64,000 nucleotides of DNA from Anaerolinea sp. GTDB lineage: Bacteria; Chloroflexota; Limnocylindria; Limnocylindrales; CSP1-4. The notes beneath the pieces were generated by a model. The model was not told the DNA's origin. It searched no databases and was given only the letters and a program-made list of their open reading frames with translations. Where the stretch lies: positions 4,723 through 68,722 of the forward strand of contig PNKK01000013.1 in assembly GCA_013822395.1 (NCBI GenBank), given 5' to 3'. A program made the translations under genes and the position numbers. This document shows, piece after piece, positions 18,760-64,000 of this stretch. The stretch's first letter is position 1, and every line of letters starts with the position of its first letter.

Positions 18760-19088
18760 TGGCCGCCACGCTGACCGTGATCTGGTGGCGGGACATTCCC
18801 GCCCAGGTCGTGGCGAAGGACCGGCGCGAGGCCCACAAGGTCGTGCTGCATCCGCGCTTCCAGGTGGCGATCGACAAGGCCGCGATGAAGGGGGGTCGGA
18901 AGGAGTTCGGCGACTACATCGAGGAGTGGCGCCGCGAGGCCCGCCCGTGCGGCGACGACCTGCTGGCCGAGGCGGCGGCCGAGGCGGCGCGCCTCGAGGC
19001 GCAGTACACGAGGGAGGTCCTGGCGCGACTCGTCGCGGCCGGCGGCCTCGATCCCGCTCGAAGCGTCCCGAAGGATGGACCCGCATGA
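18759..19088 (+). CDS. small accessory protein of methyltransferase clusters (virulence-factor-domain-like)
   Basis: 109 aa (MAATLTVIWWRDIPAQVVAKD...). ATGA overlaps at both ends. Resembles the small conserved protein found beside MtrH-like genes. Function unknown. Confidence 0.6.
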   Translation: MAATLTVIWWRDIPAQVVAKDRREAHKVVLHPRFQVAIDKAAMKGGRKEFGDYIEEWRREARPCGDDLLAEAAAEAARLEAQYTREVLARLVAAGGLDPARSVPKDGPA

Positions 19089-23783: not shown

Positions 23784-23785
23784 GC

Positions 23786-48161: not shown

Positions 48162-51036
48162 CGGTCGGCCTCCCCCCTTCCACGAGCCGGTCGACCAGGC
48201 CGAGGAATTCGTCCATGTCGAGAGGCTTGGCCAGGAAACCATCCGCCCCCGCGTGCTCGAGCCGGCGTCTGAGCCCGGGCCCGTTCGACGAGCTCAGGAC
48301 GAGCACCGGGATGTCCCGGGTGCGAGGGTCCCCGCGCAAGGCATCCAGCACTTCTTCGCCCGAGATGTCCGGGAGGTGGAGGTCCAGGAGGACCAGGTCC
48401 GCCTCGTGCTGCCGGACGAGCTCCAGGCCCAGCCGGCCCTGCATCGCCGCCACCAGGCGCGTCCCCGGCCGCGCGGTGAGAATCCGCTCCACGAGGCCCA
48501 GGTTCGGCAGGTTGTCCTCGATGTAGACGACCGTCCGGTGCGCCGCCCCAGCGTCGACCGGCCCTGCGTCCGGTCCCGGGGGCGCGGCGGGGGTGTCCGT
48601 GGCCGGCAGCTCGACGTGGAACGTGCTGCCGCGGCCAGGGGTCGAGTCCACGCCGATCGTCCCGGCCATCGCCTCGATCAGGCCCGCGGAGAGAGCCAGC
48701 CCCACGCCCAGGCCACCGGGGGCGCCGTCACCAGCGGAAGCCCCGCGCCGGAACGGGGTGAACAGATGGTCGCGCACCTCGGGCGCGATGCCCGGACCGT
48801 CGTCGGCGACGGAGATCCGCCACCGGCCGGACGCCGTGCCTGGCTCCCGCCCCACGACGATCTCGCCGCCCGACGGGCTGTGCTTCACGGCATTGGACAG
48901 GAGGTTCAGGAGGACCTGCCGCAGGCGCCGGCCGTCGGCCAGGACCCACGCCCCGGGATCCGCCGCGGGAAGGCGCACGACGAGCCCGCGGGCATCGGCG
49001 GCCGGGCGGATCAGGTCCGCCGTATCGTGCAGCACCTCGTCCACGGCGACCGGCTCGATCGACAGTGTCAGGCGGCCCGCATCCACGCGAGCCAGCTCGA
49101 TAAGGCCGTCCACCATCTCGAGCAACCGGCGACCACCGCGCAGGACCTGGGCCACCGCATCCCGGTCCTCTGGGCCTGGCAGCTCGGCGCGCTCGAGGAG
49201 CTGGCCGAAGCCCAGGACCGCGTTGAGCGGGGTGCGGAGCTCGTGGCTCACCCCTGACAGGAACTCGCTCTTCGCCCGGTTGGCCAGCTCCGCCGCCTCC
49301 TTCGCCTCTCGGAGCTGACGCTCGGTCTCGTTCCGCTCGGTCATGTCGACGAGCGTGCCGTTGAACTGCCACGAGCCGTCGTCGTTGAACGTGCGGCGCA
49401 GCGTCACGTGCATGTCGCGGGTATCGCCCGCAGCCGTCATGTAGCGGAGCTCACGCACGAACCGCGTCTCCCGCGCCTCAGCAGACGCCATGAGCGCCGC
49501 ATGGGTGGCTTCACGTTCGCCGGGCTCGATGACGTCGACGACCCACCGTGGGACGCCGACCACCGCGGCCGGCGGATACCCGAGGATGGATTCCACGCTC
49601 GGGCTGATGTAGTCCAGCACGAGTTCCGGGCCCCGGCCGCGGAGCAGGATGACGGGCGTGGACCGGGCGATCTCCTCGAGGTACCCACTTGCCGCCGAGA
49701 GCTCGGTCTGGGCGGCCCGCCAGGCCGTGACGTCAACGCCCGTTCCCAGGAAGGTGGCCGGACTGCCGTCCTCCGAGCACTCCCACCGTGACGCGACGAG
49801 GATGTTCCGGTACGAGCCGTCCGCATGCCACATCCGCACCTCGCCGGTCACGACACCGCCCATGGCGGCTGCCTCGGCGACGGTCGCGGGGAAGATCTTC
49901 ACGTCATCCGGATGGACGATGCCCGGCCACCAGCCGGGTCGGCCGACCACGTCCTCCGGTCGATACCCGAGGACCGACCAGAGCGCGGGACTCGCGTACG
50001 TGAGGACGGCGTCCGAGATCCGACCCCGCACCACGATGCCCGGCGAGGTCGCGACCAGCTCCTCCGCAAAGGCGTGGGCGGCGACCTCCTTCCGACGCTC
50101 GAGCTCGAGCGCCATGAACAGGCCCCGGATCCGGGCGATCGCCAGGATCGCCACCGTGGCCGCCACGACGTCCAGGACGAACGAGTCCTCGGCACCCGGA
50201 AACAGGTGTCGGGTGAGGGTTCCGATGGTGGGCGCCAGGATCGCGGCGGCGAGGAGGGCGAATCGTGGCCTCGGACCCAGGAGCGGCGCATCCGCCGCCC
50301 GCGTGTTCGAGGGATGCAGCGCAGCCGCGCCGAAGCAGACGAGAGAGAGGAGCCACATCGGTTCGGGCGCGACCGGCAGCGGCGGGACATGGATCCCGAG
50401 TCCGAACGTGGCGTCACCGGCTGACTGCGCCGTCAAGGCGGCGAGGAGCAGCCCGATCGCTTCCCGTCCCGGGCCCGGCGTCAGCGCGAGCCAGACGCCC
50501 ATTGCGAGCGCCGGAATGCCGACGAAGAAGGATGCGAGAACCCGCGGATCCTCCAACCCGTGGCCCCCGACGCCCGTGACCGAGAGCCCGAACAGGAACA
50601 CCCCCAGGCCCAGCCCCACGACCACGATCACGGCGTCCAGGAGCGCTGCGCGATCCGTGGTCGCGCCCCGAGACCGGGCGAGCGACCAGAGTCCGATGGC
50701 CAGGAGACCATACGGGACGATGAAGCCGGCGTCGATCCAGGCATGGGGCAGGGCGACGGACGGCCAAGCGGCGCCGACCGTCAACAACACGTTGAGTCCG
50801 AACTGGACCGCGACCGCGGCGAGAATGACTTGCCAGGCCGGCCGTTCGGAGGGGCGGTTGCGCCGGACACCAACGCCGATCGCGACGACGGCGGCCGCGT
50901 TGCCTACCGTGCGCAGGGCGTCCGCTCCTGGGCCGGCCGGGGCGATCGCGATGAAGGCGGCGAGCCCGATGCCGGCGAGCAGGAAGAGTCGCCAGGCGCG
51001 ATCATCCATGGCGCGCCGGGCAAGGTTGCCGTCCAC
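48154..51036 (-). CDS. hybrid sensor histidine kinase (polytopic membrane N-terminus, PAS domains, HisKA, HATPase_c, REC)
   Basis: 960 aa. About 10 TM helices. PAS-like repeats. SHELRTPLNAV H-box. G-boxes. C-terminal REC (VVYIEDNLPNL...LLDLHLPDISG). Confidence 0.85.
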   Translation of the reverse strand: MDGNLARRAMDDRAWRLFLLAGIGLAAFIAIAPAGPGADALRTVGNAAAVVAIGVGVRRNRPSERPAWQVILAAVAVQFGLNVLLTVGAAWPSVALPHAWIDAGFIVPYGLLAIGLWSLARSRGATTDRAALLDAVIVVVGLGLGVFLFGLSVTGVGGHGLEDPRVLASFFVGIPALAMGVWLALTPGPGREAIGLLLAALTAQSAGDATFGLGIHVPPLPVAPEPMWLLSLVCFGAAALHPSNTRAADAPLLGPRPRFALLAAAILAPTIGTLTRHLFPGAEDSFVLDVVAATVAILAIARIRGLFMALELERRKEVAAHAFAEELVATSPGIVVRGRISDAVLTYASPALWSVLGYRPEDVVGRPGWWPGIVHPDDVKIFPATVAEAAAMGGVVTGEVRMWHADGSYRNILVASRWECSEDGSPATFLGTGVDVTAWRAAQTELSAASGYLEEIARSTPVILLRGRGPELVLDYISPSVESILGYPPAAVVGVPRWVVDVIEPGEREATHAALMASAEARETRFVRELRYMTAAGDTRDMHVTLRRTFNDDGSWQFNGTLVDMTERNETERQLREAKEAAELANRAKSEFLSGVSHELRTPLNAVLGFGQLLERAELPGPEDRDAVAQVLRGGRRLLEMVDGLIELARVDAGRLTLSIEPVAVDEVLHDTADLIRPAADARGLVVRLPAADPGAWVLADGRRLRQVLLNLLSNAVKHSPSGGEIVVGREPGTASGRWRISVADDGPGIAPEVRDHLFTPFRRGASAGDGAPGGLGVGLALSAGLIEAMAGTIGVDSTPGRGSTFHVELPATDTPAAPPGPDAGPVDAGAAHRTVVYIEDNLPNLGLVERILTARPGTRLVAAMQGRLGLELVRQHEADLVLLDLHLPDISGEEVLDALRGDPRTRDIPVLVLSSSNGPGLRRRLEHAGADGFLAKPLDMDEFLGLVDRLVEGGRPTDA

Positions 51037-51089
51037 GCTTCGAGGCTACGGCGGGGTGCTCCGCCGCATCACCCCCCGTCCGTCGGCGC

Positions 51090-54000
51090 TCAACCGGTAC
51101 CATCGGGGGCCGCCGAGGAGTCCCCCGGCGGCTGGCGCAGTGCGAGAAGCCGATCAATGAGCTCCAGGAACTCGCCGACATCGATGGGCTTGGAGACGTA
51201 CGCGACCGCGCCGCGCGCTAGGAGGCGCTCCCGCTGGGCCGGCGTCGCGTCGGCGCTCAGGATCACGACCGCGATGTCGCGGGTCAGCTCATCCGACCGG
51301 AGCCGGCCCATGACCTCGGTCCCGTCCAGGTCGGGCAGGTGCATGTCCAGAAGAATCAGGTCCGGCCGATGCTCGCGTGCCAGCTCGAGCCCCAGCCTCC
51401 CGAGCATCGCGGGAATCACCCGGATAGCTCCGCGCAGCGCGAACAGCCGCTCGACGAGCTGCAGATTCGAGAGGTTGTCCTCGATGTAGAGGACGGTCCC
51501 CCCAAGCCTGGGGCCGGGCGCGGGCGGCTCGGCCACCTGAGCCGCCCGCGCCTCCGCCGGTACCCCGTCCGGGCGCCCCGTGTCGTCCGGGCTCGTCGCT
51601 GGCAGCTCGAACCAGAACGTGGACCCCTCGCCCGGGACGCTGTCGAAGCCGATGGTCCCGCCCATTCGCTCCACGAGCACCTTCGAGAGCGCCAGCCCCA
51701 GCCCGGTCCCTTCGACGCCCGTTGCCTCCGCCTCGAGACGGTCGAACGGGGCGAAGACGCGATCGCGCATGGCCACCGGAATGCCGGCGCCCTCATCGTG
51801 GACGCCGACGCGGACGCGGTCGGCGGCGGCGTCGGAGAGGGAGACGATGATCCGGCCGCCTGGACGGTTGAACTTCACCGCGTTCGACAGCAGGTTCAGC
51901 AGCACCTGCTTGAGGCGTTGCCGGTCCGCCAGGACGTGGCGGTCGCCGTCCTCGACGAGGAGCCTGATCCCGTGGTCCTCGGCGAGCGGCGCGATGAGCG
52001 CCGTCGCCTCGGTCACGGCGCCGGCGAGGTGGACCGGCTCGGGCGAGATCGTGAGCGTGCCGGACTCGATCCGGCTGATATCGAGGACCTCGTTGATCAG
52101 GTCGAGCAGGTGCCGGCCGCCCCTGAGGATGTGGTGCACGCTCTCCCGCTGGTCGTGGCCGAGCGGCTCCATGTCCATGAGCTGGGCGAAGCCGATGACC
52201 GCGTTCAAGGGCGTCCGGAGCTCGTGGCTCATCCGCGACAGGAACTCCGTCTTGGACCGGTTGGCTCGTTCCGCCTCCGCGCGCGCGGACTCCAATGCCC
52301 GCTGGAGCTGCTTCGTGGTTGTCACGTCCCGAAAGGCGATGGCGACGCCGTCACCGACCCTGGTGATCCGGACCGAGAGATCGCGCGTCTCGCCTGTCGA
52401 CGCATGGGGCAGGCTGGCCTCGTATTCGACCGGACTGCCGCTCGCGACCACCCGCGACCAGAGTGCGAGGCGCCGCTCGTACAGGTCCGGAGGCTGCGCC
52501 GACAGGCGGGCACCGACCGCGCCGAAGGACGGTCCGATGATCTCCGCCGCCGGATCGTTCGAGAAGACGGCCTCGAAGTCGACGACCTCACCCGTGTCCG
52601 GATCCCGGATCGCTCGGCTCACGGTGAGTGGATCGACGGCGATGTCCAGGTATTCGCGTGTCTGGCGCTCCGCCTCGATGCGCTCGGTGATGTCGCGCAC
52701 GACGGCGACGAGCCGGAGCGGACCGTCCTCTGCCCGGACGGCCTGGAGGATGATCTCGACCGGGAGCTCGGTCCCGTCCTTCCGCCGGTGGACGGTCTCG
52801 AACCGGTGGACGTCCCGGGTCCCGTCGACGAGTGGCGCGATGAGAGCCCGGAAGCCGGCCTCGTCGAAGCGCGGCTTGAGGTCCAGGGGCGTCATCTTCA
52901 GGAGCTCGTCGCGGCTGTAGCCGACCTGCTCCGTGGCTCCCCGGTTGACGTAGAAGAAGCGCAGCGTCTCCGGATCGAAGATGAACAGGCCGTCGCGGGT
53001 GGCCTCCACGAGGGCAGCCTGGGCCGCGAGGCGAGCCTCGCTTTCCCGGAGCTCCGCGAGCGCCGCCGACAGGTCCGCCGTCCGCGTCTCCACCCGCTCC
53101 TGGACAGAGGCCGCCATGCGGTCGAAGGTGGCGGCGAGCGCGCCGAGCTCTCCGCCGCCGGAGAAGCCCGTGCGCGCCTCCAGGTCCCCGGAGGCGATCC
53201 GGTCGGCCGCGGCGGCAAGCTGATCGACGGGCCGCAGGATCAGGCGGCGGACGCCATACCAGGACAGCGCAAGCGCGACGCCCACCGCGGTCAGGAGCAG
53301 GCCCATCCCCACCTGGAACGACCGGTCGGCCACGGCCGTCAGCCGACCCAGCTCGAAGCCGATGGCAACGGAGATCGCGTTCGCATTCGCGTTCCCGAGA
53401 TCGACGTGGCGGTGAACGTACAGCCGCGGGATCCCGTCGACACCGGCTGTTTCCAGCTGCCCATCCGGACCCCGCAGCATGGCGGCGACGAGCGGGACGT
53501 CCGGCAATGTCTGGCCCACCCAATCCTGTGGCGCGGGCTCCCGGACGATGATCGTGCTCTTCCGGTCGACGACCAGCAGGTCGGCGCCCTCGGGGATGCC
53601 GGCATCGACGCCGAGCCGGGTGAGCGAGGAGAGTGGGAGCGACGCGAGAACGACTCCCGAGAATGCCCCGGCATCGCCGCGGATCGGCAACGCGACCACG
53701 ATGACCCGCTGCTTCGTGACCCGGCCCACGCTGTAGTCGCCGATCGCGAACGAGCCCGTCGCCATCGCCTGGATGAAGTACGGCCGGTCCGCGACGGACA
53801 CGGGTCCGCTGGTCGGGACACCCGAGCAGAGGACGTTCCCGTCAGCGTCGGTGGCGGCCAGGTTGACGTACTCGGGATACGCGGGCAGGAGGTCGCGGAG
53901 GTACGCGGCACAGGCCGCCTGGTCGAGATCGCGAACCTGCGGGACCGCCGCGATCGCGATGAGGGTCTGTCGCGAGGCCTCGAAAAACACCCGTGTGCTG

Positions 54001-54224
54001 TCAGCGACGAGTGACGCATGCCGACCCGCATCCTCGACCGCAGCCGCTCGTGTCGTCTCGCGTTCGGCGGCCAGCCGCAGGACGCTGCCAACGACGAGCG
54101 GCGCGGCGACCAGGATCGCGATGACGCCGACCCTGGCGCGAAGGCCGAATTGCCCGAAGCGTGGATCTCCCCGCGGGGTAGGCTCATTGGAGGTGATCGG
54201 AATCCCCCGGTCGCCCCGTGTCAA
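51090..54224 (-). CDS. hybrid sensor histidine kinase (Cache-like periplasmic domain, HAMP, PAS x2, HisKA, HATPase_c, REC)
   Basis: SHELRTPLNAV H-box, HATPase G-boxes, C-terminal REC (VLYIEDNLSNL...LLDMHLPDLDG). Start is uncertain. The TTG at 54224 (GAGG upstream) is chosen because the ORF 5' part to 54503 is Arg-rich and overlaps the upstream gene. Confidence 0.8.
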   Translation of the reverse strand: MTRGDRGIPITSNEPTPRGDPRFGQFGLRARVGVIAILVAAPLVVGSVLRLAAERETTRAAAVEDAGRHASLVADSTRVFFEASRQTLIAIAAVPQVRDLDQAACAAYLRDLLPAYPEYVNLAATDADGNVLCSGVPTSGPVSVADRPYFIQAMATGSFAIGDYSVGRVTKQRVIVVALPIRGDAGAFSGVVLASLPLSSLTRLGVDAGIPEGADLLVVDRKSTIIVREPAPQDWVGQTLPDVPLVAAMLRGPDGQLETAGVDGIPRLYVHRHVDLGNANANAISVAIGFELGRLTAVADRSFQVGMGLLLTAVGVALALSWYGVRRLILRPVDQLAAAADRIASGDLEARTGFSGGGELGALAATFDRMAASVQERVETRTADLSAALAELRESEARLAAQAALVEATRDGLFIFDPETLRFFYVNRGATEQVGYSRDELLKMTPLDLKPRFDEAGFRALIAPLVDGTRDVHRFETVHRRKDGTELPVEIILQAVRAEDGPLRLVAVVRDITERIEAERQTREYLDIAVDPLTVSRAIRDPDTGEVVDFEAVFSNDPAAEIIGPSFGAVGARLSAQPPDLYERRLALWSRVVASGSPVEYEASLPHASTGETRDLSVRITRVGDGVAIAFRDVTTTKQLQRALESARAEAERANRSKTEFLSRMSHELRTPLNAVIGFAQLMDMEPLGHDQRESVHHILRGGRHLLDLINEVLDISRIESGTLTISPEPVHLAGAVTEATALIAPLAEDHGIRLLVEDGDRHVLADRQRLKQVLLNLLSNAVKFNRPGGRIIVSLSDAAADRVRVGVHDEGAGIPVAMRDRVFAPFDRLEAEATGVEGTGLGLALSKVLVERMGGTIGFDSVPGEGSTFWFELPATSPDDTGRPDGVPAEARAAQVAEPPAPGPRLGGTVLYIEDNLSNLQLVERLFALRGAIRVIPAMLGRLGLELAREHRPDLILLDMHLPDLDGTEVMGRLRSDELTRDIAVVILSADATPAQRERLLARGAVAYVSKPIDVGEFLELIDRLLALRQPPGDSSAAPDGTG

Positions 54225-54403
54225 GCGCTCTTCGACCTCGCTGCTTCCCCACCCGACGGGCCGCGCGCTGCACGCCGGGCCGGCTCTGCCCGCGGATTGT
54301 ACGCGCCGCCTCTCCCCGCGGAGCGCCAGACTTCGCGGAGCGCCCCACTCCGCCGGCTGCCGACGCGGCCCTGCGTTCACGCCGACGGCGGGATGCGGAC
54401 CCC

Positions 54404-55036
54404 TCAGTCGGCTCCCTCCTCCAGCAGCGGGCCGACGGAGAACGGCCGGCGCGTCCCGCCGAGCGGCATGCCCCGCTCGTCGTAGACCGTGACGACGATC
54501 CACATCGTCCCGTTCGGGCGCGGGTAGGGCAGGTCGAAGCTCGCGCTGAACGTCGGCGCCCGCTCCGGACGGACCCCGCCATCCGGGTCGGTGACGTCGA
54601 TCGAGACGTGATCGAGGACGCGGTTGCCGCGCGCCTCGAGGAAGATCTCGACTCGCGCCGCGCGGACGAGCACCGAGCCCAGGACCGCCACCCGGCGCGT
54701 CGTGATCTCGACTCGTGCCGGCGCCGGGGACGCGAGGTCGACGACGTCGGTGACAACCGCCGTGCCGTGCCCGGGGGACTGGTGGGCCTGGGGCGACGAG
54801 GGCGACGTGGCGGGTTGTGCCACGTCCGGCTCGGCCGCCCCCGCCGGCGGAAGACCACGGGCAGTTCCGGGCTCACCCGCCCCGCCCGCGAGCGCCCCAA
54901 CCCCCGCGAGCGCGACCAGCCCGATCGCCCAGGCGCTCGCGATCAGCGGCCCGCGCCGGCTCGAGGGACCGACCGCCCGCGGCGCGAAGTCGACCTCGCG
55001 GAGCGGTGCCTCCTCGAAGATCGGGAGGTCGTCCAC
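54404..55036 (-). CDS. hypothetical membrane-anchored protein
   Basis: 210 aa. One TM (LIASAWAIGLVALAGVGALAG), then a beta-rich extracytoplasmic region. First gene after the aldehyde dehydrogenase on the same strand. No motif recognised. Confidence 0.5.
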   Translation of the reverse strand: MDDLPIFEEAPLREVDFAPRAVGPSSRRGPLIASAWAIGLVALAGVGALAGGAGEPGTARGLPPAGAAEPDVAQPATSPSSPQAHQSPGHGTAVVTDVVDLASPAPARVEITTRRVAVLGSVLVRAARVEIFLEARGNRVLDHVSIDVTDPDGGVRPERAPTFSASFDLPYPRPNGTMWIVVTVYDERGMPLGGTRRPFSVGPLLEEGAD

Positions 55037-55046: not shown

Positions 55047-56528
55047 TCAGGGCCGAAGGTCGATGAAGACGTTCTTCGTTTCGGTGTAGAGGTCGATCGC
55101 GGACATTCCGAGCTCCCGCCCGATCCCGGACATCTTGTAGCCGCCGAACGGCGCCTCGGTGTGAACGCTGCTGTTGCAGTTGACCGACAGGACCCCGGCC
55201 TGGATGCCCCTGGCGGTCCGGAGCGCCTTGCCGATGTCGCGACTCCAGACGGAGCCGGAGAGGCCGTACGGCGTCGCGTTGGCGAGGCGCATCGCCTCCG
55301 CCTCCGTGTCGAACGGGATGATCGACACGACCGGCCCGAAGATCTCCTCGCCGGCGATCCGCATCTCGTTGCGCACGCCGTCGAAGACGGCCGGCATCAG
55401 GTAGGCACCGTCGGCCAGGGCAGGATCCGTCGGCGCCTCGCCGCCGACGACGAGAGTGGCGCCCTCGGACAGGCCGATCTCGATGTAGTCGCGGACGCGG
55501 TCGCGTTGCTTGAAGCTCACGAGCGTGCCGACCTCGGTGGCCTCGTCGGCCGGGTCGCCGACCACGACCTTCCGCGTCGCCGCCGCAAACAGCTCGACGA
55601 CCTGGTCGTGGACCGACCGCTCGACGAGGATCCGGCTCCGCGCACAGCAGTCCTGGCCGCAGTTGTCAAAGACCGAATACGGGGACTCGGCCGCGAAGCG
55701 CTCGATGTCCGCGTCCGCGTAGACGATGTTCGGGCTCTTGCCGCCGAGTTCGAGGGAGACCTTCTTCACGTTGCCTGCCGCGAGTCGCATGATCTCCTGC
55801 CCGGTCGTCGTCTCGCCGGTGAAGGCGACCTTGCCGACGCCCGGATGCGCTGCGATGGCCGCGCCGGCGGTGCCGCCCGGGCCGGTGACCACATTGATGA
55901 CGCCGGGCGGGAATCCCGCCTCCAGCGCCAGCTCGCCGACCCTCAGCGCGGTCATCGGGGAGAGGCTCGCGGGCTTCAGGACGCAGGTGTTGCCCGCGGC
56001 GAGGGCCGGTCCCAGCTTCCAGCTGGCCATGAGGAGCGGGAAGTTCCACGGCACGATGAGCCCGACGACCCCGATCGGCTCGCGGAGCGTCAGGTCCAGG
56101 CCTGGCTTCGTCACCGGGATCGTCTGGCCGAAGATCTTGTTCGCGGCGCCGGCGTAGTAGTCGAAGACGAGGCTCGCGCCGACGACCTCGCCGCGAGACG
56201 ACGAGATCGGCTTGCCGGTGTTGCGGGTCTCCAGCCAGGCCAGCTCGTCCGTGTGGTCCTTGATGAGCGCCGCGAACTTCGCCAGCGTTCGGCCGCGCTT
56301 GCCGGCGGCCCAGGTGCCCCAGCCCTTCGGGTCGTCGAATGCCCTCTGCGCAGCCTCCACGGCGCCGTCGACGTCGGCCTTGCCGCCGAGCGGCGCGGTG
56401 GCAATGACGCCGCCGGTCGCGGGATTGACGATCTCGAACGTCTGCCCGTCAGCGGCATCGACGGTCTGGCCGCCGATCACCATCTTCAGGGCACTGATGC
56501 CGGCGGACGCGGTCTGGTCGATGGCCAT
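55047..56528 (-). CDS. NAD(P)-dependent aldehyde dehydrogenase
   Basis: 493 aa from the ATG at 56528. VPWNFPL, ELGGKSP and NCGQDCCA (catalytic Cys). The ORF 5' extension to 56696 is not protein-like. Confidence 0.9.
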   Translation of the reverse strand: MAIDQTASAGISALKMVIGGQTVDAADGQTFEIVNPATGGVIATAPLGGKADVDGAVEAAQRAFDDPKGWGTWAAGKRGRTLAKFAALIKDHTDELAWLETRNTGKPISSSRGEVVGASLVFDYYAGAANKIFGQTIPVTKPGLDLTLREPIGVVGLIVPWNFPLLMASWKLGPALAAGNTCVLKPASLSPMTALRVGELALEAGFPPGVINVVTGPGGTAGAAIAAHPGVGKVAFTGETTTGQEIMRLAAGNVKKVSLELGGKSPNIVYADADIERFAAESPYSVFDNCGQDCCARSRILVERSVHDQVVELFAAATRKVVVGDPADEATEVGTLVSFKQRDRVRDYIEIGLSEGATLVVGGEAPTDPALADGAYLMPAVFDGVRNEMRIAGEEIFGPVVSIIPFDTEAEAMRLANATPYGLSGSVWSRDIGKALRTARGIQAGVLSVNCNSSVHTEAPFGGYKMSGIGRELGMSAIDLYTETKNVFIDLRP

Positions 56529-56752: not shown

Positions 56753-57318
56753 GTGGTCGGGCTCGGGACGCTGGGTTTCGTGGCGTTCGAGGGCTGGTCG
56801 CTCGACGACAGCCTGTACATGACGGTGATCACGATGACGACCGTCGGGTTCCGGGAGGTCCGCGAGCTCGATGCCACCGGCCGGCTCTGGACGATGCTCC
56901 TTGCGATTGCCGGCGTCGCGATCATCTTCGGGTCGATCGGGATCGTCGCGGAATCGATCCTCAGCGAGGCGGCGAGCGGCAGGAGGGGGCGGCGACGAAT
57001 GACGGACACGGTGGGCGCGCTGAGCGAGCACTTCATCCTGTGCGGGTACGGGCGGGTCGGGGCGACGGTCGCCCGGGAGCTGTCCCATGCCGGCATCGCG
57101 TTCGTGGTCGTCGACATCAACCCGGCCTCCCTCGAGACGGCGACCCGTGATGGGTTCCTGGTCGTGGAGGGCGACGCCACGCGCGATGACGTCCTCCGCG
57201 CCGCGGGTGTCGACCGGGCCCGCGGGCTCATCACGACCGTCGACTCGGATGCCGTGGCGACGGGCTCATCGTGTCGGGGACGTCGGACACGCTCAAGCGG
57301 CTTCGCGAACGGGCCTGA
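56753..57318 (+). pseudogene. decayed K+ channel / RCK (TrkA-N...TrkA-C) gene with internal deletion and frame change
   Basis: Pore-like TMTTVGFRE, TM2 and TrkA-N (ILCGYGRVGATVARELS...VVDIN...GDATRD) run to about 57250. A different frame then reads GDGLIVSGTSDTLKRLRERA-stop (to 57318), the typical TrkA-C end. An in-frame TAG at 56732 truncates TM1. Confidence 0.6.
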
Positions 57319-57360
57319 CAGGCGGTCCGGCCGAACGGCCCGCCGCCATTCGTGCCGGCG

Positions 57361-57430
57361 GTGTCCCGCCCCTCGTGTCCCGCCCCTCGTGTCCCGCCCC
57401 TCGTGCCCCGCCCCTCGTGCCCCGCGCGCG
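57361..57430. repeat. 14-bp tandem repeat x5 (GTGTCCCGCCCCTC)
   Basis: Three perfect copies plus two diverged copies. The complementary strand is G-tract rich (GAGGGGCGGGACAC)n. Confidence 0.85.
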
Positions 57431-57768
57431 GGTGTGCGGGTGCGCGCGGCCTTGTTCTCCGTGGGCGAACCGATCGTCCGAATCGAGCCAGACCGGCGCT
57501 CATCGATGGTTCGATCGAGCCCGCCGGTCACCTCGAGCGGGGTCGGCGAGGGACCGTCCACGCTCGTCGCCGGGCGCCCGGGCCGGGCGCCCGGATCCCC
57601 AGATCGGACCGGCTCAGCCCGCCCGACGATTCGGCCGATTAGTTCGGCGGTGGCGAACACCGGCCTCGCGGCGCGCTCCCCACCGCGCCGTGGCAGACCC
57701 GAGCGCGTCCAGTTACGCTCGCATCCCCGGGCCTTGACCTCGCCCGCCCTCGTCCGGGCGGGAGGAGC

Positions 57769-58536
57769 TCAGAAGTAGTTCACCGTGATGCCGCCGTCGA
57801 CGACCATCGCCGCGCCGTTCGTCCAGCGCGACTCATCGGAGGCGAGGTAGATCCCCATCGCGACGATCTCCTCGGGCCTGCCGAAGCGGCCGGTCGGATT
57901 GCGGGCAAGCCGGATCCGCTTGGCCTCCTCGTCCTTCACGAGCCAGTCCATGAGCAGCGGCGTCTCCACCGGGCCGGGGCAGATCGCATTCGATCGGACG
58001 CCCTTCGGCGCGAACTGGACGGCGAGCGACTTCGTCAGCGCGAGGACCGCGCCCTTCGATGCCGTGTAGGCATCCTGCGGGTTGGAGCAGCCGATGAGGG
58101 CGACGAAGCTCGAGATGTTGATGATGGAGCCGGATCCCTGCTTCACCATCTGCGGGATGGCGTACTTGCAGCCGAGGAACACGCCGCGGACGTTCACGGC
58201 CATGACCCGATCCCAATCCTCGACCGAGGTGTCGATGACCGAGTGGTCCGCCTCAGGCATGATCCCGGCGTTGTTGTAGAGGACGTCCACGCGCCCGTAC
58301 GTCGCGATCGCGTGGTCCACCATCCCCTTCGCCGACGCCTCGTCGGCGACGTTCGTCGTGATGAAGGTCGCCTCGCCGCCGGCCTCGTTGACGAGCCGAA
58401 CGGTCTCCTTGCCGGCCGTCTCGTTGTACTCGGCGACGACGACCTTGGCGCCCTCGGCGGCGAACATGAGCGAGGCGACCCGGCCCATGCCGGAGCCGCC
58501 GCCCGTGATGATCGAGACCTTGTCCGTCAGTCGCAT
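57769..58536 (-). CDS. SDR-family oxidoreductase
   Basis: TGGGSGMGR cofactor motif, NNAG, and the S...YTASKGAV catalytic tetrad. Confidence 0.9.
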   Translation of the reverse strand: MRLTDKVSIITGGGSGMGRVASLMFAAEGAKVVVAEYNETAGKETVRLVNEAGGEATFITTNVADEASAKGMVDHAIATYGRVDVLYNNAGIMPEADHSVIDTSVEDWDRVMAVNVRGVFLGCKYAIPQMVKQGSGSIINISSFVALIGCSNPQDAYTASKGAVLALTKSLAVQFAPKGVRSNAICPGPVETPLLMDWLVKDEEAKRIRLARNPTGRFGRPEEIVAMGIYLASDESRWTNGAAMVVDGGITVNYF

Positions 58537-58725
58537 GGCCGTCTACCTCTCATGGGTTGCTCGCAGCGGTGGCAGCCGGCGCCGGCCGGCGGTTGATGAG
58601 ATCGGGCGGGGACCGATTGTCCGCGACACGGCGGCCTGCCCGCCGTGATGACCCACGCGGCGATCCACCTGTCACACAACAGCGTAGCCGTCAGAACCGG
58701 GGCTCGCAGGGTGGCCCCTCGCCAG

Positions 58726-59613
58726 TCAGGCGCGTGGGCGGATGTGCTCGGCGAGGGCCTGTGCTCCATCGGCAACGCGACCCGGCAACAGCAGGACGGA
58801 GGCCTCGATCGCCAGGCCGGCGGCAGGCCCGCCGACGGCGACGACGATGTCGGGGCGAGCCTCCCTGAGTGCCCGGGCTGCTTCGAGCGCGGGTCCGGCA
58901 TCGATCGCCGTCATGACGGCGATCACGGCGGCCACGGCGCGACTCTCTCCGGCGGCGAGTGCCCAGGATGCGACAGGAACATCGGCACCGAGGTAGACGA
59001 CGTTGACGCCAAGGCGTCGGAGCGCGACGGCGAAGGCCGAGGCGCCGATCTCGTGGCGGCTCCCCGCGGGAAGGCCCACGAGGACGCCGGGTCCTGAACC
59101 TGGCGTACCCCCTTGGGCGAAAAGCGCCGAAAGGCGCCGTGTCACCGCCGCGCTGGCGACGTGCTCGGCGGCGACGTCGATCCGGCCATTCGCCCAGGCG
59201 GTTCCGAGAGCGGCGACCACCGGCAGAAGGAGATCGTCCGCCACCGCCTCGAAGGACCCTTTCGCGAAGATCCCGTCGAGCTGTCGATCGAGTGCGGCGA
59301 CGTCGTAGGTGCGCGCGGCTTCGACGAACGATTCAGCGGGGCCACCGGAGGCAACGGCCGTCTGGACCCCGCCCCCGTGGAGATCGATCTGCGTCCCGCC
59401 GGGGCGGGCAACCTCCCCGGCGGCCTGCGCGGCGGCCCACCCGGCATCGATGAGACGGCGCATGGCCCTGAGGCGGGCAAGAGCCTCGTCGTCATAGAGC
59501 CGGTAGCCGCTCGGGGTTCGGGCCGGCTTGACGATGCCATACCGGCGCTCCCAGGCACGAATCAGCGAGACGCTGACGCCCGTTCGGAGCGAGGCCTGTC
59601 TGATCGTGTACAT
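58726..59613 (-). CDS. MerR-family regulator with cobalamin-binding domain (CarH/LitR-like photoreceptor candidate)
   Basis: MerR HTH (YTIRQASLRTGVSVSLIRAWERRYG). Four-helix-bundle motif W-x9-EH (WANGRIDVAAEH). Rossmann B12-binding region with RHEIG (xHxxG). Confidence 0.8.
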   Translation of the reverse strand: MYTIRQASLRTGVSVSLIRAWERRYGIVKPARTPSGYRLYDDEALARLRAMRRLIDAGWAAAQAAGEVARPGGTQIDLHGGGVQTAVASGGPAESFVEAARTYDVAALDRQLDGIFAKGSFEAVADDLLLPVVAALGTAWANGRIDVAAEHVASAAVTRRLSALFAQGGTPGSGPGVLVGLPAGSRHEIGASAFAVALRRLGVNVVYLGADVPVASWALAAGESRAVAAVIAVMTAIDAGPALEAARALREARPDIVVAVGGPAAGLAIEASVLLLPGRVADGAQALAEHIRPRA

Positions 59614-59641
59614 GGTTTGTCGATCCTACCACCCCAAAACA

Positions 59642-59682
59642 ATGGACAAAGTATTGACATCTCGGCCTGCTCATCGTATCGT
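59642..59682 (+). promoter_or_regulatory. candidate promoter with 11-bp-phased direct repeats
   Basis: ATGGACA (59642-48) and ATTGACA (59653-59) are 11 bp apart. TTGACA (59654-59), 17-nt spacer, TATCGT (59677-82). This is an AT-richer stretch between the regulator and DUF378. Confidence 0.45.
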
Positions 59683-59735
59683 TGAGGTCGGGACCCAGGA
59701 CAGAGATTGCACAAGACATCGATAGGAGGACACAC

Positions 59736-59954
59736 ATGCAGGTCGTCAAGACGCTCGCTCTGCTACTTGTCATCGTCGGCGGGCTCAACTGGCTGCTCGT
59801 CGGGCTGTTCAGCTTCGACCTTGTTGCGAGTGCCACCGGCTCGTCGTTCGGCGAGACCAACGTGATCTCGACCGTTGTCTACGCCCTCGTTGGAATCTCG
59901 GCCGTCGCCCTTGTTCCGACACTGGTCTCGTGGGTGACCGGCAAGAGCTCCTGA
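59736..59954 (+). CDS. DUF378-family small membrane protein
   Basis: 72 aa from the ATG at 59736, preceded by AGGAGGA (5-nt spacer). LLLVIVGGLNWLLVGLFSFDLVA is the DUF378 signature. Confidence 0.8.
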   Translation: MQVVKTLALLLVIVGGLNWLLVGLFSFDLVASATGSSFGETNVISTVVYALVGISAVALVPTLVSWVTGKSS

Positions 59955-59968
59955 CCGGACACGATCGA

Positions 59969-60002
59969 CCGGGCCTGCCGCCGCAATCGGTGGCAGGCCC
60001 GG
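59969..60002 (+). terminator. strong stem-loop between DUF378 and heliorhodopsin genes
   Basis: CCGGGCCTGCC (59969-79) pairs perfectly with GGCAGGCCCGG (59992-60002), 12-nt loop. No U-tract, so it could be an attenuator or processing site rather than a terminator. Confidence 0.35.
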
Positions 60003-60049
60003 CATGAACCCATTCGCCACGCACGGACCACGACGCACTCGGAGCATCG

Positions 60050-60862
60050 ATGACCGCCACCGCCATCCCCGCTGACCGGGCCCGATCCCTGGTCCGCTGG
60101 AACCGTGCCCTGACGTTCCTCCACGGCATCCAGTTCGTCGTCATGCTCGCCGTCGCGAGCACCGACGTCGCCTTTGCGCCGTTCATCCCGACCGTGAGGC
60201 CGATCATCGAGGACGGGGCCTTCGCCGGGATCGAGCCGACGAGCGTCGAGCTCTTCTCATTCCCGCTCGCCTGGCTCATCGTGTCATTCCTGGCGATGAG
60301 CGCGATCGCCCATGCGGCCGCCGGATGGCCGCTTCGCGCCCGCTACGAGGACTGGCTCGCCCGGGGCATGAACCCGCTCCGCTGGGTCGAGTACTCGTTC
60401 AGCAGCACGGTGATGATCGTCGCGATCGCCTACCTGTCCTTCATCCGGGACGTGCCCGCGCTCGTGGCCATCGCTGCCTCCAATGTGGCGATGATCCTGT
60501 TCGGCTGGAGCATGGAGGCTGCGAACGAGCGCCGGCGCGAGAATCCCGACTGGAAGCACTACGTCTTCGGCTGCATCGCCGGGATCGCCCCCTGGATCGG
60601 GATCTTCTCGATCCTCGTCGCGTACGGCGCCCAGGCCAACCTGCCGGTCGACGCGGGGATCCCGGCCTTCGTCTACCTGATCGTCGGATCGCTCTTCGTG
60701 GCGTTCAACATCTTCGCCGTCACGATGGTTCTTCAGTACAGACGGATCGGCCGCTGGAGCGACTACCTCGCCGGCGAGAAGACGTATATGGTCATGAGCC
60801 TCGTCGCGAAGTCGCTTCTCGCGTGGCAGGTCTTCAGCGGGACACTCCGCCCCGGTGGCTGA
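60050..60862 (+). CDS. heliorhodopsin
   Basis: 270 aa, 7 TM. Full-length resemblance to characterised heliorhodopsins: FLHGIQ, RWVEYSFSSTVMIV (counterion Glu), MILFGW, FGCIAGIAPWIG, YMVMSLVAKSLLAWQVFSGTL (Schiff-base Lys). Confidence 0.9.
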   Translation: MTATAIPADRARSLVRWNRALTFLHGIQFVVMLAVASTDVAFAPFIPTVRPIIEDGAFAGIEPTSVELFSFPLAWLIVSFLAMSAIAHAAAGWPLRARYEDWLARGMNPLRWVEYSFSSTVMIVAIAYLSFIRDVPALVAIAASNVAMILFGWSMEAANERRRENPDWKHYVFGCIAGIAPWIGIFSILVAYGAQANLPVDAGIPAFVYLIVGSLFVAFNIFAVTMVLQYRRIGRWSDYLAGEKTYMVMSLVAKSLLAWQVFSGTLRPGG

Positions 60863-60920
60863 TCCCCGGGGAGATCGCGCTCTGGCGCGTCAGCGGCGCG
60901 GGAGCCGAGCCGCCGTGGCG

Positions 60921-62312
60921 TCAGCCGCGCTCGAGGTAGCGCTCGCGCTCCCAGTCGTGGACGACGGAGTCGTAGACCTGCTGCTCGACGCGGGCGGCGT
61001 TCAGGTAGTGGTCCACGACGTCGACGCCGAAGATCTCCGCGGCGGCCTCGGAACGCTCCAGCTCCCAGATCGCCTCGTACAGCGCCCGCGGCATCCGGGC
61101 CACACCCTTGGCGATGTAGCCGTTGCCCTTGAACTCGGGGGCCAGCTCGAGGCCGTGCTCGATGCCGTACAGGCCGGCGCCGATCATCGCCGCGTACGTC
61201 AGGTATGCGTTCATGTCGCCACCGGGGAAGCGGTTCTCGATGTGGAGCGACGGGCCATGGCCCACCAGCCGGAAGCCGGTCGTCCGGTTGTCGCGGCCCC
61301 AGACCACGTTGACCGGCGCCCATGACAGCGAGGCGTAGCGCTTGTAGCTGTTGATGAACGGCGCGACGAACACGGCGAGCTCGCGCGACAGGGCCATCAT
61401 CCCGGCCACGAACTGGCTGAACGGACGGCTGATCCCGTACGGCAACCCGTCGGCCTCGTTGTGGCTGAGCGGCTGCTTTCCGGCAGCGTCCCAGATGCTC
61501 ATGTGGAGGTGGCCGGACGAGCCGGTCCAGGTGTGATCCGGCTTGGCCATGAACGTGATGCCCCACCCGTTGAGGTAGGCGATCTCCTTCGCGCCGTGCT
61601 TGAACAGGACGCTCCGGTCGGCCGATTCGAGGACGTCGTCGTAGCGGATGTTCACTTCGTGCTGTCCGGCGGCCGCCTCGCCCTTCGAGAACTCGATCGG
61701 GATTCGGGCCTCCGTCATCTGGTTCCGGAGCAGCCGGTGGAGCGGCTCTGCCTTGGTCGCCTGGAGGAGGTGGTAGTCCTCGTTGTAGGTGCCGAACCGC
61801 TTCGGGATGGCGAAGCCGTTCTCGGCGATGGTGTCCCACGAATCCTTGAGGACGTAGTACTCGAACTCGGAGCCGGCCTTGATCGAGATCCCGGCCTTCG
61901 TGGCCCGCTCGACCTGTCGTTTGAGGATCGTTCGCGGAGAGACCGGGATCTCCCTGTGCGTCTCCTCGTCGACGGCGTCGGACAGGACGAGCGCGGTCTT
62001 CTCGAGCCACGGGAGGACGCGGAGACTGTCCCAGACGGGCGAGGCGATCCAGTCGCCATAGCCGGTCTCCCAGTTCATGAGCGCGAACCCCTCGGGCGTG
62101 TTCATCTCCATGTCCGTGCCGAGGAGGTATGTGCAGAAGTGCGCCCCGTGGTCGATGACGCCATTCAGGAAGGCCTGGGCCTGAACGCGCTTGCCCATGA
62201 GGCGTCCCTGCATATCGGTGAAGGCCACCACGAGGGTGTCGATCCGGCCGTCCCGGACCATTCCCTCCAGCTCCTCGAGCCGGGCGTGCTTGCGATGGCT
62301 GGTGCTGCTCAT
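60921..62312 (-). CDS. glutamine synthetase-family ligase (GlnA3/PuuA-like gamma-glutamyl-amine synthetase candidate)
   Basis: 463 aa from the ATG at 62312. KPDHTWTGSSGHLHMSIW ATP site, NSYKRY and ENRFPG are GS type I family motifs. It lacks the look of a housekeeping GlnA N-terminus. Confidence 0.85.
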   Translation of the reverse strand: MSSTSHRKHARLEELEGMVRDGRIDTLVVAFTDMQGRLMGKRVQAQAFLNGVIDHGAHFCTYLLGTDMEMNTPEGFALMNWETGYGDWIASPVWDSLRVLPWLEKTALVLSDAVDEETHREIPVSPRTILKRQVERATKAGISIKAGSEFEYYVLKDSWDTIAENGFAIPKRFGTYNEDYHLLQATKAEPLHRLLRNQMTEARIPIEFSKGEAAAGQHEVNIRYDDVLESADRSVLFKHGAKEIAYLNGWGITFMAKPDHTWTGSSGHLHMSIWDAAGKQPLSHNEADGLPYGISRPFSQFVAGMMALSRELAVFVAPFINSYKRYASLSWAPVNVVWGRDNRTTGFRLVGHGPSLHIENRFPGGDMNAYLTYAAMIGAGLYGIEHGLELAPEFKGNGYIAKGVARMPRALYEAIWELERSEAAAEIFGVDVVDHYLNAARVEQQVYDSVVHDWERERYLERG

Positions 62313-62420
62313 GTGACCTCGCTCGGGACGCTCCGCAGGGTGGATGGAACCGGAAGTGAGGGGGCCGGCCGGCACGTGCCGGCCGGCCCCCTCACGTGCA
62401 TGCTGCTTGAACGCTTGGGA

Positions 62421-64000
62421 TCAGCCGCCGAGCTGCTCGGCGGCCTGCTCGAACTCCTTCTCGATCTCGGTGAGCTCCGCCTCGGCGCCCATGCGGTGGG
62501 GCCCCTTGAACCGGGCGCGCGCCCAGACGACGTAGTAGATCGCGAGCAGAACGAGGAAGCCGGCCGTGGTCGCGAGCGCGGCCGGGTTGAGCGGGAACGG
62601 GTAAAGGAAGAGCGGGCTGATCAGGATGATCCAGACGACGGAGACGAGCGCCATCGGCCGGCTCCAGCGGCCAAGGCTCCAGACTCGCTCGTTGCGCCAG
62701 CTCTGGTCGCCCCACAGCCCGAGCGCGATGCACAGGCCGTAGGCCCAGTACAGCAGCACCGTGCTGACGCCGGTCACGCCGGCGATGAGGAAGAGCGGGT
62801 CGCCGCCGAACGCCTTGGTCAGGACGTAGATCAGGGCGATGAGGAGCCAGCTCGCGACGCTGATCGCGATCACGGAGTTCGCCGGGCTCCGATAGCGATG
62901 CGAGACCTTCTTGAGCCAGCCCGAGCCGGGCATCCCGTCGTCGCGGGCGAAGGCGTAGAGCATCCGGCCAGACGACGCGATCGACGAGAACCCGGCGAAC
63001 GTCATGGCGAAGGCGATGCCGAGGGCCAGGAGGCCGCCGAGCTGCCCGAGGCCCGCCCCGAGGTTGGTCTCGAGGATGTAGGCGACGCCGCCGCCGCCGG
63101 TGCTGTTGGCGAGCACGTCGGCCGGATCGGTCATCTTCAGCGTCAGCGCCGTGAGGACGACGTAGCCGGCCACGGCGGACACGGCCACGGACAGGAAGAC
63201 GCCCCAGGCGGACGCGGCCCGCGCACGAACCGTCTCCTCTGCCACGTGCGCCGAGGCGTCGTAGCCGGTGTACGTCCACTGCGCCTGAAGCAGGCTCAGG
63301 GCGAACGCGCCGGCGACCCCGAACGGCAGGATGCTGGCGATCGGGGCGCCTTCGGCGGTCGTGCCGGCCGGCGCGACGGAGAACAGGAAACCGAGGTCGT
63401 GGATCGGCTGGGAGCCGGCGACGAAGAGCAGGATCGCGATCGCGGCGACGAAGCCGATGTGCCACCAGACGGACAGGTCGTTCATGAAGGCGACGACCCG
63501 CGTCCCGGCCACGTTGAATCCGATCTCGATCAGGATCAGGACCCCGGTGATCCAGATCGCGTTCAGGACGCCGAGGGTCTCGACGTTCGGGTCGATTCCG
63601 AAGACCGGGTTGAGGAACGTGGCGGCGAGGTAGAACGCCGCCGCGTAGTTGATCCCGGCGACGATCGAGATCTGGCCACCCAGGTTGAGCCAGGCGGTCC
63701 ACCAGCCCCAATCCTTGTTCCGGAGGCGACTCGCCCAGTAGTAGAGGCCGCCCGCCGTCGGATAGGCCGAGGCGATCTCGGCCATCGTGGCGGCGATCAG
63801 CAGCGTGAAGACCGTCACGAGCGGCCAGCCGATTCCGACCGAGGCCGGCCCGCCGAGCGCCAGGCCGTAGTTGAAGAGGATGACGGCGCCGGTCAGGATC
63901 GAGATGATCGAGAAGCTGATCGCGAAGTTGCTGAACCCGCCCATCGTGCGGAACAGCTCCTGCGCGTACCCGAGCTTGTGCAGGTCCCTGATGTCCTGCT
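62421..64000 (-). CDS. APC-family amino acid/amine permease (5' end beyond window)
   Basis: Polytopic. FSNFAISFSIISILTG and EIASAYPTAGGLYYW are APC signatures. The frame stays open upstream of the Met at 63944 (…LGYAQELFRTMGG) to the window edge. Confidence 0.85.
   Translation of the reverse strand, partial: QDIRDLHKLGYAQELFRTMGGFSNFAISFSIISILTGAVILFNYGLALGGPASVGIGWPLVTVFTLLIAATMAEIASAYPTAGGLYYWASRLRNKDWGWWTAWLNLGGQISIVAGINYAAAFYLAATFLNPVFGIDPNVETLGVLNAIWITGVLILIEIGFNVAGTRVVAFMNDLSVWWHIGFVAAIAILLFVAGSQPIHDLGFLFSVAPAGTTAEGAPIASILPFGVAGAFALSLLQAQWTYTGYDASAHVAEETVRARAASAWGVFLSVAVSAVAGYVVLTALTLKMTDPADVLANSTGGGGVAYILETNLGAGLGQLGGLLALGIAFAMTFAGFSSIASSGRMLYAFARDDGMPGSGWLKKVSHRYRSPANSVIAISVASWLLIALIYVLTKAFGGDPLFLIAGVTGVSTVLLYWAYGLCIALGLWGDQSWRNERVWSLGRWSRPMALVSVVWIILISPLFLYPFPLNPAALATTAGFLVLLAIYYVVWARARFKGPHRMGAEAELTEIEKEFEQAAEQLGG

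Follow-up and report, generated by a model that had tools for sequence, protein, structure and literature searches.

The CarH/LitR repressors are a well-known family, and photolyase genes are classic company of their regulons. Among the heliorhodopsins (HeRs), AbHeR binds and stimulates the glutamine synthetase (GS) AbGS (PMC9529153), and TfHeR binds a photolyase, in a case without a MerR/B12 regulator (PMC9769723). MerR regulators, GS, short-chain dehydrogenases/reductases (SDR) and photolyase were listed by Cho et al. 2024 as frequent HeR neighbours and candidate interaction partners, with no B12 or light-regulation reading of the MerR neighbours (PMC11109279); the text supplements of that paper contain nothing on MerR, B12 or DUF378. 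Published work takes the genes next to HeR as binding partners and leaves the MerR neighbours without further interpretation, and in the open-access literature we found no paper joining heliorhodopsin with CarH, LitR, cobalamin or B12-binding. Here we describe an HeR gene in a 64,000-nucleotide stretch of Chloroflexota DNA (Anaerolinea sp., contig PNKK01000013.1; hereafter the window), which stands beside a gene for a CarH/LitR-like regulator on one side and converges with a gene for a GS-like ligase on the other (Table 1). We propose, with moderate confidence, that positions 58726-60862 form a B12-gated light cassette inserted in an amine operon, and that the adjacency of HeR and ligase is positional rather than functional. 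An earlier, sequence-only reading of the window had called this combination of genes undescribed. As a list of neighbours (MerR, GS and SDR) it is already in PMC11109279; the B12 and light reading is absent there.

Gene families were assigned with Pfam and NCBIfam profile searches. The cassette region has a G+C content of about 65-72%, and the G+C content by codon position singles out one clear gene per stretch. More than 5,000 HeR homologues were found, and the nearest relatives of the window HeR belong to Chloroflexota, class Limnocylindria, and not to Actinobacteria. Each locus scan covered the closest 80 loci. The 80 genome loci of the HeR side, retrieved together with an alignment of 30 HeRs, all come from metagenome-assembled genomes (MAGs) of Chloroflexota, mostly labelled Limnocylindrales; the window proteins were placed in them by tblastn, every gene was called and clustered, and the clusters were annotated. 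The core set comprises 37 loci with an HeR at least 77% identical to that of the window, of which 29 have sufficient upstream DNA and 25 sufficient downstream DNA. The 80 metagenomic loci of the ligase side carry a ligase 79-94% identical to that of the window, and 49 of them extend at least 1 kb downstream.

The window HeR is intact, scoring 268 bits against PF18761 (cut-off 26.7) and 254 bits against NF038020 (cut-off 100). Alignment with the HeR 48C12 (PDB 6su3) pairs E114 with the counterion E107 in helix 3, K254 with the Schiff-base K241 in helix 7, H25 with H23 and H88 with H80. Its 45-50% similarity to solved HeRs suggests that the protein would share their inverted membrane topology and bind retinal. 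By every sequence test available, the product of the divergent gene is a putative CarH/LitR-type B12 photoreceptor. It scores 56 bits for MerR_1, 41 bits for MerR, 37 bits for B12-binding_2 and 33 bits for B12-binding, and its closest PDB match is CarH of T. thermophilus (TtCarH; 5c8d, E=2e-32, residues 1-266). Residues 1-60, the MerR-type winged-helix domain, align with TtCarH, the W-x9-EH motif GTAWANGRIDVAAEH is paired with GEAWHRGEIGVAEEH of 5c8d, the HxxG loop of the His ligand, SRHEIG, with ERHEIG, and the GxxxP element YLGADVP with YLGPDTP. All four SignatureFinder elements are present (GxxW, EH, GxxH and GxxxP), which serve to recognise light-responsive B12 proteins (PMC11796333). The W-x9-EH and the other signature motifs are kept in all 22 aligned full-length MerR-B12 regulators, which are only 45-61% identical to the window regulator. 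As a member of the CarH family, the regulator may thus be expected to bind adenosylcobalamin (AdoCbl) and to respond to light. The window also encodes a RACo corrinoid activator and a further protein with a B12-binding domain, and therefore the organism uses corrinoids. The RACo-type protein, a reductive activator of corrinoid proteins, and an MTHFR-like product are encoded at positions 19075-22245 and 23285-24676; the further B12-binding-domain protein lies somewhere within 1-45 kb of the window, where a local phmmer search did not place it. These genes suggest a corrinoid methyltransferase system. The sequence-only reading is borne out at this level. Its five genes (regulator, DUF378, HeR, GS-family and APC permease) were recovered where it had put them by open reading frames, Pfam and NCBIfam, with the regulator divergent from DUF378-HeR and HeR convergent with the ligase as claimed, and the profile searches that it proposed (heliorhodopsin, B12-binding_2 plus B12-binding, Gln-synt_C) all matched. 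The alignments to 48C12 and 5c8d agree with its claims of an intact HeR with counterion Glu and Schiff-base Lys, and of a regulator with the W-x9-EH and HxxG motifs of CarH/LitR.

The intergenic region between the two divergent units carries a conserved promoter-operator. The predicted DUF378-HeR promoter matches at 10 of 12 positions and is the sole promoter-like site within 58600-64000; its -35 hexamer aligns with a TTGAC invariant in 22 related loci. In the 22 aligned regulator-proximal intergenic regions, an invariant -35 CTTGACA is followed 17-18 nt on by a -10 hexamer (TAATGT, TAGAGT or similar), directly after which start three 11-bp units of the form TNNACA-N5-TNNACA-N5-TNNACA (typically CTGCACAGACCTTGTACAAAGGTTGTACA). 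This architecture is kept whatever gene comes next, be it DUF4397, SRPBCC-NAD, fasciclin, DUF378 or HeR. The CarH operator has been described as tandem 11-bp nAnnTnnACAn repeats overlapping the promoter, three in Thermus and four in Bacillus, at a position that varies over the -35, the -10 or both (PMC8156234). The operator of this lineage retains the T and the ACA of the published repeat, and not the A at position 2. The exact 12-base operator pattern occurs at 16 sites in 1.29 Mb of loci, and at 25 sites when one mismatch is allowed. All 16 exact sites, and 24 of the 25, lie at a regulator promoter or directly before HeR. In the window, the repeats at 59697-59724 are the only three-repeat match with at most two mismatches in the whole 64 kb, where 0.14 would be expected, and their position is homologous to exact operator copies in 15 related loci.

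Two loci show the operator at HeR itself. In L023 a promoter with an exact operator, and in L029 a promoter with a one-mismatch operator, end 17 nt before the HeR start, with no regulator gene nearby. In four others (L012, L028, L033 and L041), a promoter-operator-like sequence directly before HeR is visible by eye, with no match to the three direct repeats at one mismatch or fewer. Therefore, HeR appears to be a direct member of the regulon in this lineage. On the opposite strand of the window, two more TNNACA repeats overlap the start codon of the regulator; the stretch is nearly invariant in the 22 loci, is partly coding, and is a possible autoregulatory half-operator. Some relatives have further repeats. 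Two sets of three 11-bp repeats stand 42 nt apart at L021:9203-9272, L039:1081-1150 and L075:9108-9177, one set over the -35 and one after the -10, making at least six repeats compared with the three or four described for CarH, and L028:1733-1760 has the -35-proximal set only.

The association of the regulator with HeR is conserved. A MerR-B12 gene lies within 5 kb of HeR in 23 of the 29 core loci with sufficient upstream DNA, and therefore the arrangement is more than chance. The usual order on the regulator side is aldehyde dehydrogenase (ALDH), sometimes a K+ channel gene, SDR, an optional photolyase, the regulator and the divergent promoter. On the HeR side it is variable genes (DUF4397, SRPBCC plus NAD(P)-binding, fasciclin, DUF378), HeR, variable genes again, ligase, permease and a 280-aa protein. 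The distance between regulator and HeR ranges from 0.18 to 3.2 kb. Four loci have a photolyase gene right behind the regulator gene, at gaps of -4 to 22 nt. Other HeR clades of Limnocylindria lie among housekeeping genes. In Limnocylindria, the commonest product encoded directly beside HeR is a fusion protein that joins an SRPBCC/polyketide-cyclase-like domain to an NAD(P)H-binding domain, or has the swapped order NAD(P)-binding plus DUF2867; one form or the other occurs in 21 loci (e.g. L038:10800-12257 and L047:10838-12268). This SRPBCC-NAD(P) protein, probably the 'SDR' group of Cho et al. 2024, is a better candidate for a physical partner of HeR than the GS-like ligase. A mirror copy of ligase, HeR, regulator and SDR at L014:13200-20800, with an HeR of 55% identity, was considered as an ancient HeR-ligase pair and discarded; it is an exact mirror with many frame changes, most likely a fold-back artefact of long-read MAG assembly.

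A second wiring of HeR to B12 was found in a sister clade. In L043, L046, L053, L054 and L059, where HeR is about 73% identical to that of the window, the genes around HeR lie on one strand (e.g. L046:1344-7360). The order starts with an amine oxidase (L053 and L059, where the locus reaches) and a cyclopropane-fatty-acid (CFA) synthase (L046, L053 and L059), both classic company in light regulons, and continues with an extracytoplasmic-function (ECF) sigma factor (all but L043) and an anti-sigma factor (zf-HC2 plus RskA_C). Directly upstream of HeR is a B12 protein of 230 aa with B12-binding_2 and B12-binding domains, the W-x9-EH and HxxG motifs and no DNA-binding domain. The gene after HeR encodes an NAD(P)-binding plus DUF2867 protein, except in L043, which has a fasciclin-domain gene instead. 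The combination of a sigma/anti-sigma pair with a B12 photoreceptor that lacks a DNA-binding domain seems undescribed. As two different B12 photoreceptor architectures stand beside HeR, a functional link between B12, light and HeR is much likelier than it would be by shared ancestry alone. Thus the CarH-like regulator, the conserved 11-bp operator and the second wiring lend support to the earlier suggestion that HeR expression may be light-gated by a B12-based photoreceptor. In the same clade, about 110 nt before HeR are highly conserved (L046:4951-5057, GCACCTGAGACCCATCCGC...GGCTCCTCCTGACGAGG; likewise in L043, L047, L053, L054, L055 and L059), even where the upstream gene differs (L047). This block may serve as promoter, leader or RNA element.

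Table 1. Features of the cassette and the surrounding amine operon in the window (positions of the window; strand relative to the sequence as read).
Feature	Positions	Strand	Basis or remark
Aldehyde dehydrogenase (ALDH)	55047-56528	-	Aldedh, 564 bits
K+ channel/TrkA_N gene	56753-57778	+	between ALDH and SDR
Classical SDR dehydrogenase	57769-58536	-	adh_short_C2, 224 bits
CarH/LitR-like regulator, 295 aa	58726-59613	-	MerR winged-helix plus AdoCbl-type B12-binding module, Pfam
Two more 11-bp-spaced TNNACA repeats, TGTACATGGTTTGTCGA	59607-59623	-	overlap the regulator's own start codon
Predicted sigma-70-type promoter of the DUF378-HeR unit	59654-59682	+	-35 TTGACA 59654-59659, 17-nt spacer, -10 TATCGT 59677-59682
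Putative CarH-type operator remnant, TNNACA-N5-TNNACA-N5-TNNACA	59697-59724	+	three tandem 11-bp direct repeats, 2 mismatches
DUF378 (PF04070) small membrane protein, 72 aa	59736-59954	+	Pfam 69 bits, cut-off 25
GC-rich hairpin, 15-bp stem, 4-nt loop, no U-tract	59969-60002	+	between DUF378 and HeR
Heliorhodopsin (HeR), intact, 270 aa	60050-60862	+	PF18761 and NF038020
GS-like ATP-dependent gamma-glutamyl ligase, GlnA4/5DM3 type, 463 aa	60921-62312	-	Gln-synt_C only, 287 bits
APC-family amino-acid/amine permease	62421-64000	-	AA_permease_2, 154 bits; N-terminus cut by window end

DUF378 is the first gene of the divergent unit. Its start is the ATG at 59736, which is preceded by an AGGAGG ribosome-binding site; a TTG at 59682 had been listed as the start and was rejected because it overlaps the predicted -10 hexamer. 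Homologues of DUF378 occupy the same position in L008, L014, L020, L027, L083 and L126, and only 4 of the 37 core loci have the gene, so that it is an occasional passenger of the cassette. The hairpin behind it is a candidate terminator or attenuator, and expression of HeR from the divergent promoter would depend on read-through at a reduced level, which is the least secure step of our model.

The ligase, with its start at ATG 62312, is not a housekeeping GS by profile. It has no match to Gln-synt_N and stays below the cut-offs of GlnA type I (TIGR00653, 202 bits against 429), PuuA (NF045547, 148 bits against 650) and GlnA type III (curated cut-off). Its best PDB matches are 5dm3 of C. salexigens (384 bits) and 11zs (374 bits), compared with about 146 bits for true GS. 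We take 5dm3 to be an enzyme of the glutamylation pathway of C. salexigens. The ethanolamine cluster of Streptomyces consists of SDR, aldehyde dehydrogenase, GlnA4, permease and amidohydrolase, and the same work points to a glutamylation pathway in C. salexigens (PMC6529630). The window ligase would thus belong to a GlnA4-type gamma-glutamylation operon acting on ethanolamine or a similar amine. It is reasonable to see in it, as the sequence-only reading did, a gamma-glutamyl-amine ligase linked with uptake, the GlnA4/5DM3 type fitting better than the PuuA-like type which that reading had named. The pair of ligase and APC permease also stands and is kept in relatives; the permease, however, does not follow the ligase but lies upstream of it in transcription order, its reading frame running to base 63998.

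The survey from the ligase side defines the basic unit. The order of unknown protein, APC permease, ligase, SDR, channel (where present) and ALDH is contiguous in most of the 80 ligase-orthologue loci, and the order from SDR to ALDH is conserved in relatives. The SDR, 75-95% identical in relatives, comes directly after the ligase where the cassette is absent; it follows within 150 nt in 12 of the 49 loci and within 1.5 kb in 30. Of these 49 loci, only L083 has HeR, and three have any cassette gene. L083 is the only ligase-side locus with the gene arrangement of the window, and it has a canonical promoter and operator before DUF378-HeR, while L126 carries regulator, DUF378 and fasciclin genes at the ligase|SDR junction and no HeR. 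Therefore, the operon for amine catabolism is the basic unit, into which a sub-lineage has received the light cassette at the ligase|SDR junction.

Several other features of the operon were observed. Upstream of the permease, just past the end of the window, nearly every ligase locus encodes a conserved protein of about 280 aa (e.g. L029:18035-18877 and 14 other loci), which has no match in Pfam or NCBIfam and may be the hydrolase otherwise missing from the gamma-glutamylation pathway. Many relatives have a K+ channel/TrkA_N homologue set between SDR and ALDH. In the window the corresponding open reading frame matches the family in the first ~170 residues only, continues as proline/arginine-rich low complexity and overlaps the SDR stop, so that the actual gene is probably either shorter than this frame or frameshifted. 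The gap from the permease stop to the ligase start holds a perfect 40-bp palindrome at 62356-62395, GTGAGGGGGCCGGCCGGCAC/GTGCCGGCCGGCCCCCTCAC, which occurs once in the window and in none of the 160 related loci, and has a weak sub-threshold Rfam match to Chloroflexi-1 RNA. Rfam gave no family above threshold within 54-64 kb of the window, and the convergent spacer between HeR and ligase folds no better than shuffled controls (z = -0.95). Upstream of the operon, at 45631-54503, two large hybrid histidine kinases (dCache-HAMP-PAS-HisKA-REC and PAS-PAS-HisKA-REC, with no chromophore-binding domain detected) accompany a REC-EAL protein; these genes are not conserved neighbours in relatives.

Based on the regulator, the operator and the two surveys, we propose that HeR is most likely part of a B12-gated, light-induced cassette which in relatives also holds photolyase. 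In the dark, the CarH/LitR-type regulator would bind AdoCbl, oligomerise and occupy the tandem 11-bp repeats at the divergent sigma-70 promoter, so that transcription of DUF378-HeR is blocked. Upon illumination with UV, blue or green light, photolysis of the cofactor would dissociate the oligomer and transcription would begin. Read-through of the hairpin after DUF378 would then reach HeR, which would be made mainly in the light. HeR would act in a photoprotection-type regulon, to which relatives add photolyase, SRPBCC plus NAD(P)-binding, DUF4397 and fasciclin proteins, and the cassette would have entered a GlnA4-type gamma-glutamylation operon between ligase and SDR.

Several observations weigh against this model. 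No adjacent regulator was found in 6 of the 29 core loci. The top NCBIfam model for the regulator is CarH (NF052513), with 126 bits against a cut-off of 400, which suggests a CarH family member and not an equivalog of that model, and a Ser replaces the acidic residue before its His ligand. The window operator is degenerate, having two mismatches and a third repeat that reads ATA, and at least one such match arises in 11% of shuffles of the window. In addition, 12 nt are inserted between the -35 and the repeats. The predicted -10 is therefore a new hexamer, displaced upstream by about one helical turn from the ancestral position (TAATGT in relatives), and the repeats come to lie at about +10 to +40. 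Such changes might mean that the light switch has decayed in this genome, leaving the cassette constitutive or the regulator reporting B12 supply instead of light, and it fits this idea that the insertion and the two-mismatch operator occur only in the window among the 22 aligned loci. However, the regulator has an uninterrupted frame and keeps every signature motif, two repeats out of the three remain good, and CarH operators tolerate varied positions (PMC8156234). Since Ser, Cys, Ala or Gly is common before the His ligand across the regulator clade, the substitution is not a local defect of the window regulator. We consider decay distinctly unlikely. The hairpin after DUF378 poses another difficulty, as it could terminate most transcripts; the regulator would then control DUF378 and itself only, and an unrecognised promoter, independent of light, would drive HeR. 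Terminators lacking a U-tract are frequent in high-GC bacteria. The hairpin is strong (-35 kcal/mol in local folding), and the three other loci with DUF378 directly before HeR (L014, L020 and L027) have a strong hairpin at the same place with a different sequence. On the other hand, only 47 nt separate the end of the hairpin from the HeR start, promoter prediction over 58600-64000 gave no further promoter-like site upstream of HeR, and HeR comes directly after the operator in other genomes. Hairpins after a first gene may also, as they commonly do, set the expression ratios of an operon. Hence efficient termination appears rather unlikely.

The sequence-only reading had preferred the GS-like ligase as the partner of HeR, which would make HeR a light-dependent modulator of the adjacent enzyme, with light tuning amine assimilation and the adjacency under selection. 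The ligase is indeed downstream of HeR in 20 of the 25 core loci with sufficient downstream DNA. HeR lies inside the same operon in L023 and L029 too, though at another place than in the window, and adjoins the ligase in L013, L017 and L019 despite a different upstream flank; binding of HeRs to soluble enzymes, GS (PMC9529153) and photolyase (PMC9769723), provides precedents. But convergent genes cannot share a transcript, and the spacer between HeR and ligase varies from 47 nt to 8.6 kb with different intervening genes. Seen from the ligase, HeR is the exception and SDR the usual next gene, the cassette of L126 occupies the same junction without HeR, and HeR clades of 70-76% identity sit elsewhere than at the ligase junction. 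The pattern is explained by one insertion in an ancestor that was then inherited vertically. In pairwise comparison, the identities of HeR, ligase, SDR and regulator all correlate positively (0.50-0.72), which shows common descent only and cannot separate the models. Moreover, actinobacterial HeRs of the 48C12 type have a true type I GlnA beside them (685 bits against the cut-off of 429), which is 25% identical to the window ligase, co-directional with HeR and set in a conserved lipA-DUF4191-RDD-glnA neighbourhood. As this is a distant GlnA in another arrangement, the published HeR-GS precedent does not transfer, and we regard the partnership as clearly improbable. The neighbourhood survey that the earlier reading had called for thus gave a divided answer: the MerR-B12 gene is conserved, DUF378 is not, and the ligase is a frequent neighbour when seen from HeR only. 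The data do not support its four-way functional unit with DUF378 and amine assimilation; DUF378 is infrequent, and the ligase operon is self-contained. A combined reading, in which HeR is a dedicated B12-light output in two wirings and, once induced, also binds the GlnA4-type ligase or the permease and tunes amine assimilation to daylight, is very doubtful; if true, it would be a two-chromophore circuit linking light to nitrogen scavenging.

The B12-gated cassette gives a meaning to neighbours that had been left without one. At least one large group of the MerR regulators next to HeR would be B12 photoreceptors with a recognisable operator before HeR, which would place HeR in a light-induced, photolyase-containing stress regulon. 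The model predicts that HeR mRNA increases in UV, blue or green light in a cobalamin-dependent manner, and it points to a natural case of one photoreceptor governing the supply of another. It also advises caution against over-reading the GS adjacency, which is best explained by a mobile cassette inserted in an amine-catabolic operon.

Compared with AbHeR-AbGS, the HeR gene of the window likewise adjoins a gene of the glutamine-synthetase superfamily. However, the GS of the AbHeR/48C12 type is immediately upstream of HeR on the same strand, in a predicted shared operon, whereas here HeR and ligase are convergent and the ligase is of the GlnA4/5DM3 type inside an amine-catabolic operon. Similar to TfHeR and its photolyase, HeR is genetically linked to photolyase in the Limnocylindria relatives, where the photolyase follows the regulator gene, although this stretch of the window has no photolyase. 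The amine operon shares the GS-like ligase, SDR, aldehyde dehydrogenase and APC-type permease with the GlnA4 cluster of Streptomyces (PMC6529630); it differs in having no recognisable amidohydrolase or amidotransferase, with the ~280-aa protein upstream of the permease in relatives, in the embedded K+ channel gene and in being split by the light cassette. The B12 protein of the sister clade resembles AerR-like proteins and the Streptomyces LitR-LitS system of a B12 regulator and an ECF sigma factor, as it carries the W-x9-EH motif and sits with an ECF sigma/anti-sigma pair, which would tie light sensing through B12 to an alternative sigma factor, but it has no DNA-binding domain, and it is not part of the window.

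The closest comparison is with CarH/LitR of T. thermophilus, B. megaterium and M. xanthus, with which the window regulator shares the MerR domain, the four-helix bundle with W-x9-EH and the Rossmann B12 domain with the His ligand. As in these systems, the regulator gene is divergent from its predicted target, tandem 11-bp repeats ending in ACA, clear in relatives and degenerate in the window, overlap a predicted sigma-A promoter, and photolyase belongs to the regulon in the relatives of the window. In contrast to them, the targets here would be DUF378 and heliorhodopsin instead of carotenoid genes, and the repeats lie just after the -10 and not over the -35, with the A at position 2 not kept. 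The window regulator is about 35-40% identical to TtCarH by eye and is probably a new member of the CarH/LitR family. Two elements appear to be new: a heliorhodopsin targeted directly by a B12 photoreceptor, and the operon of sigma factor, anti-sigma factor, B12 protein and HeR.

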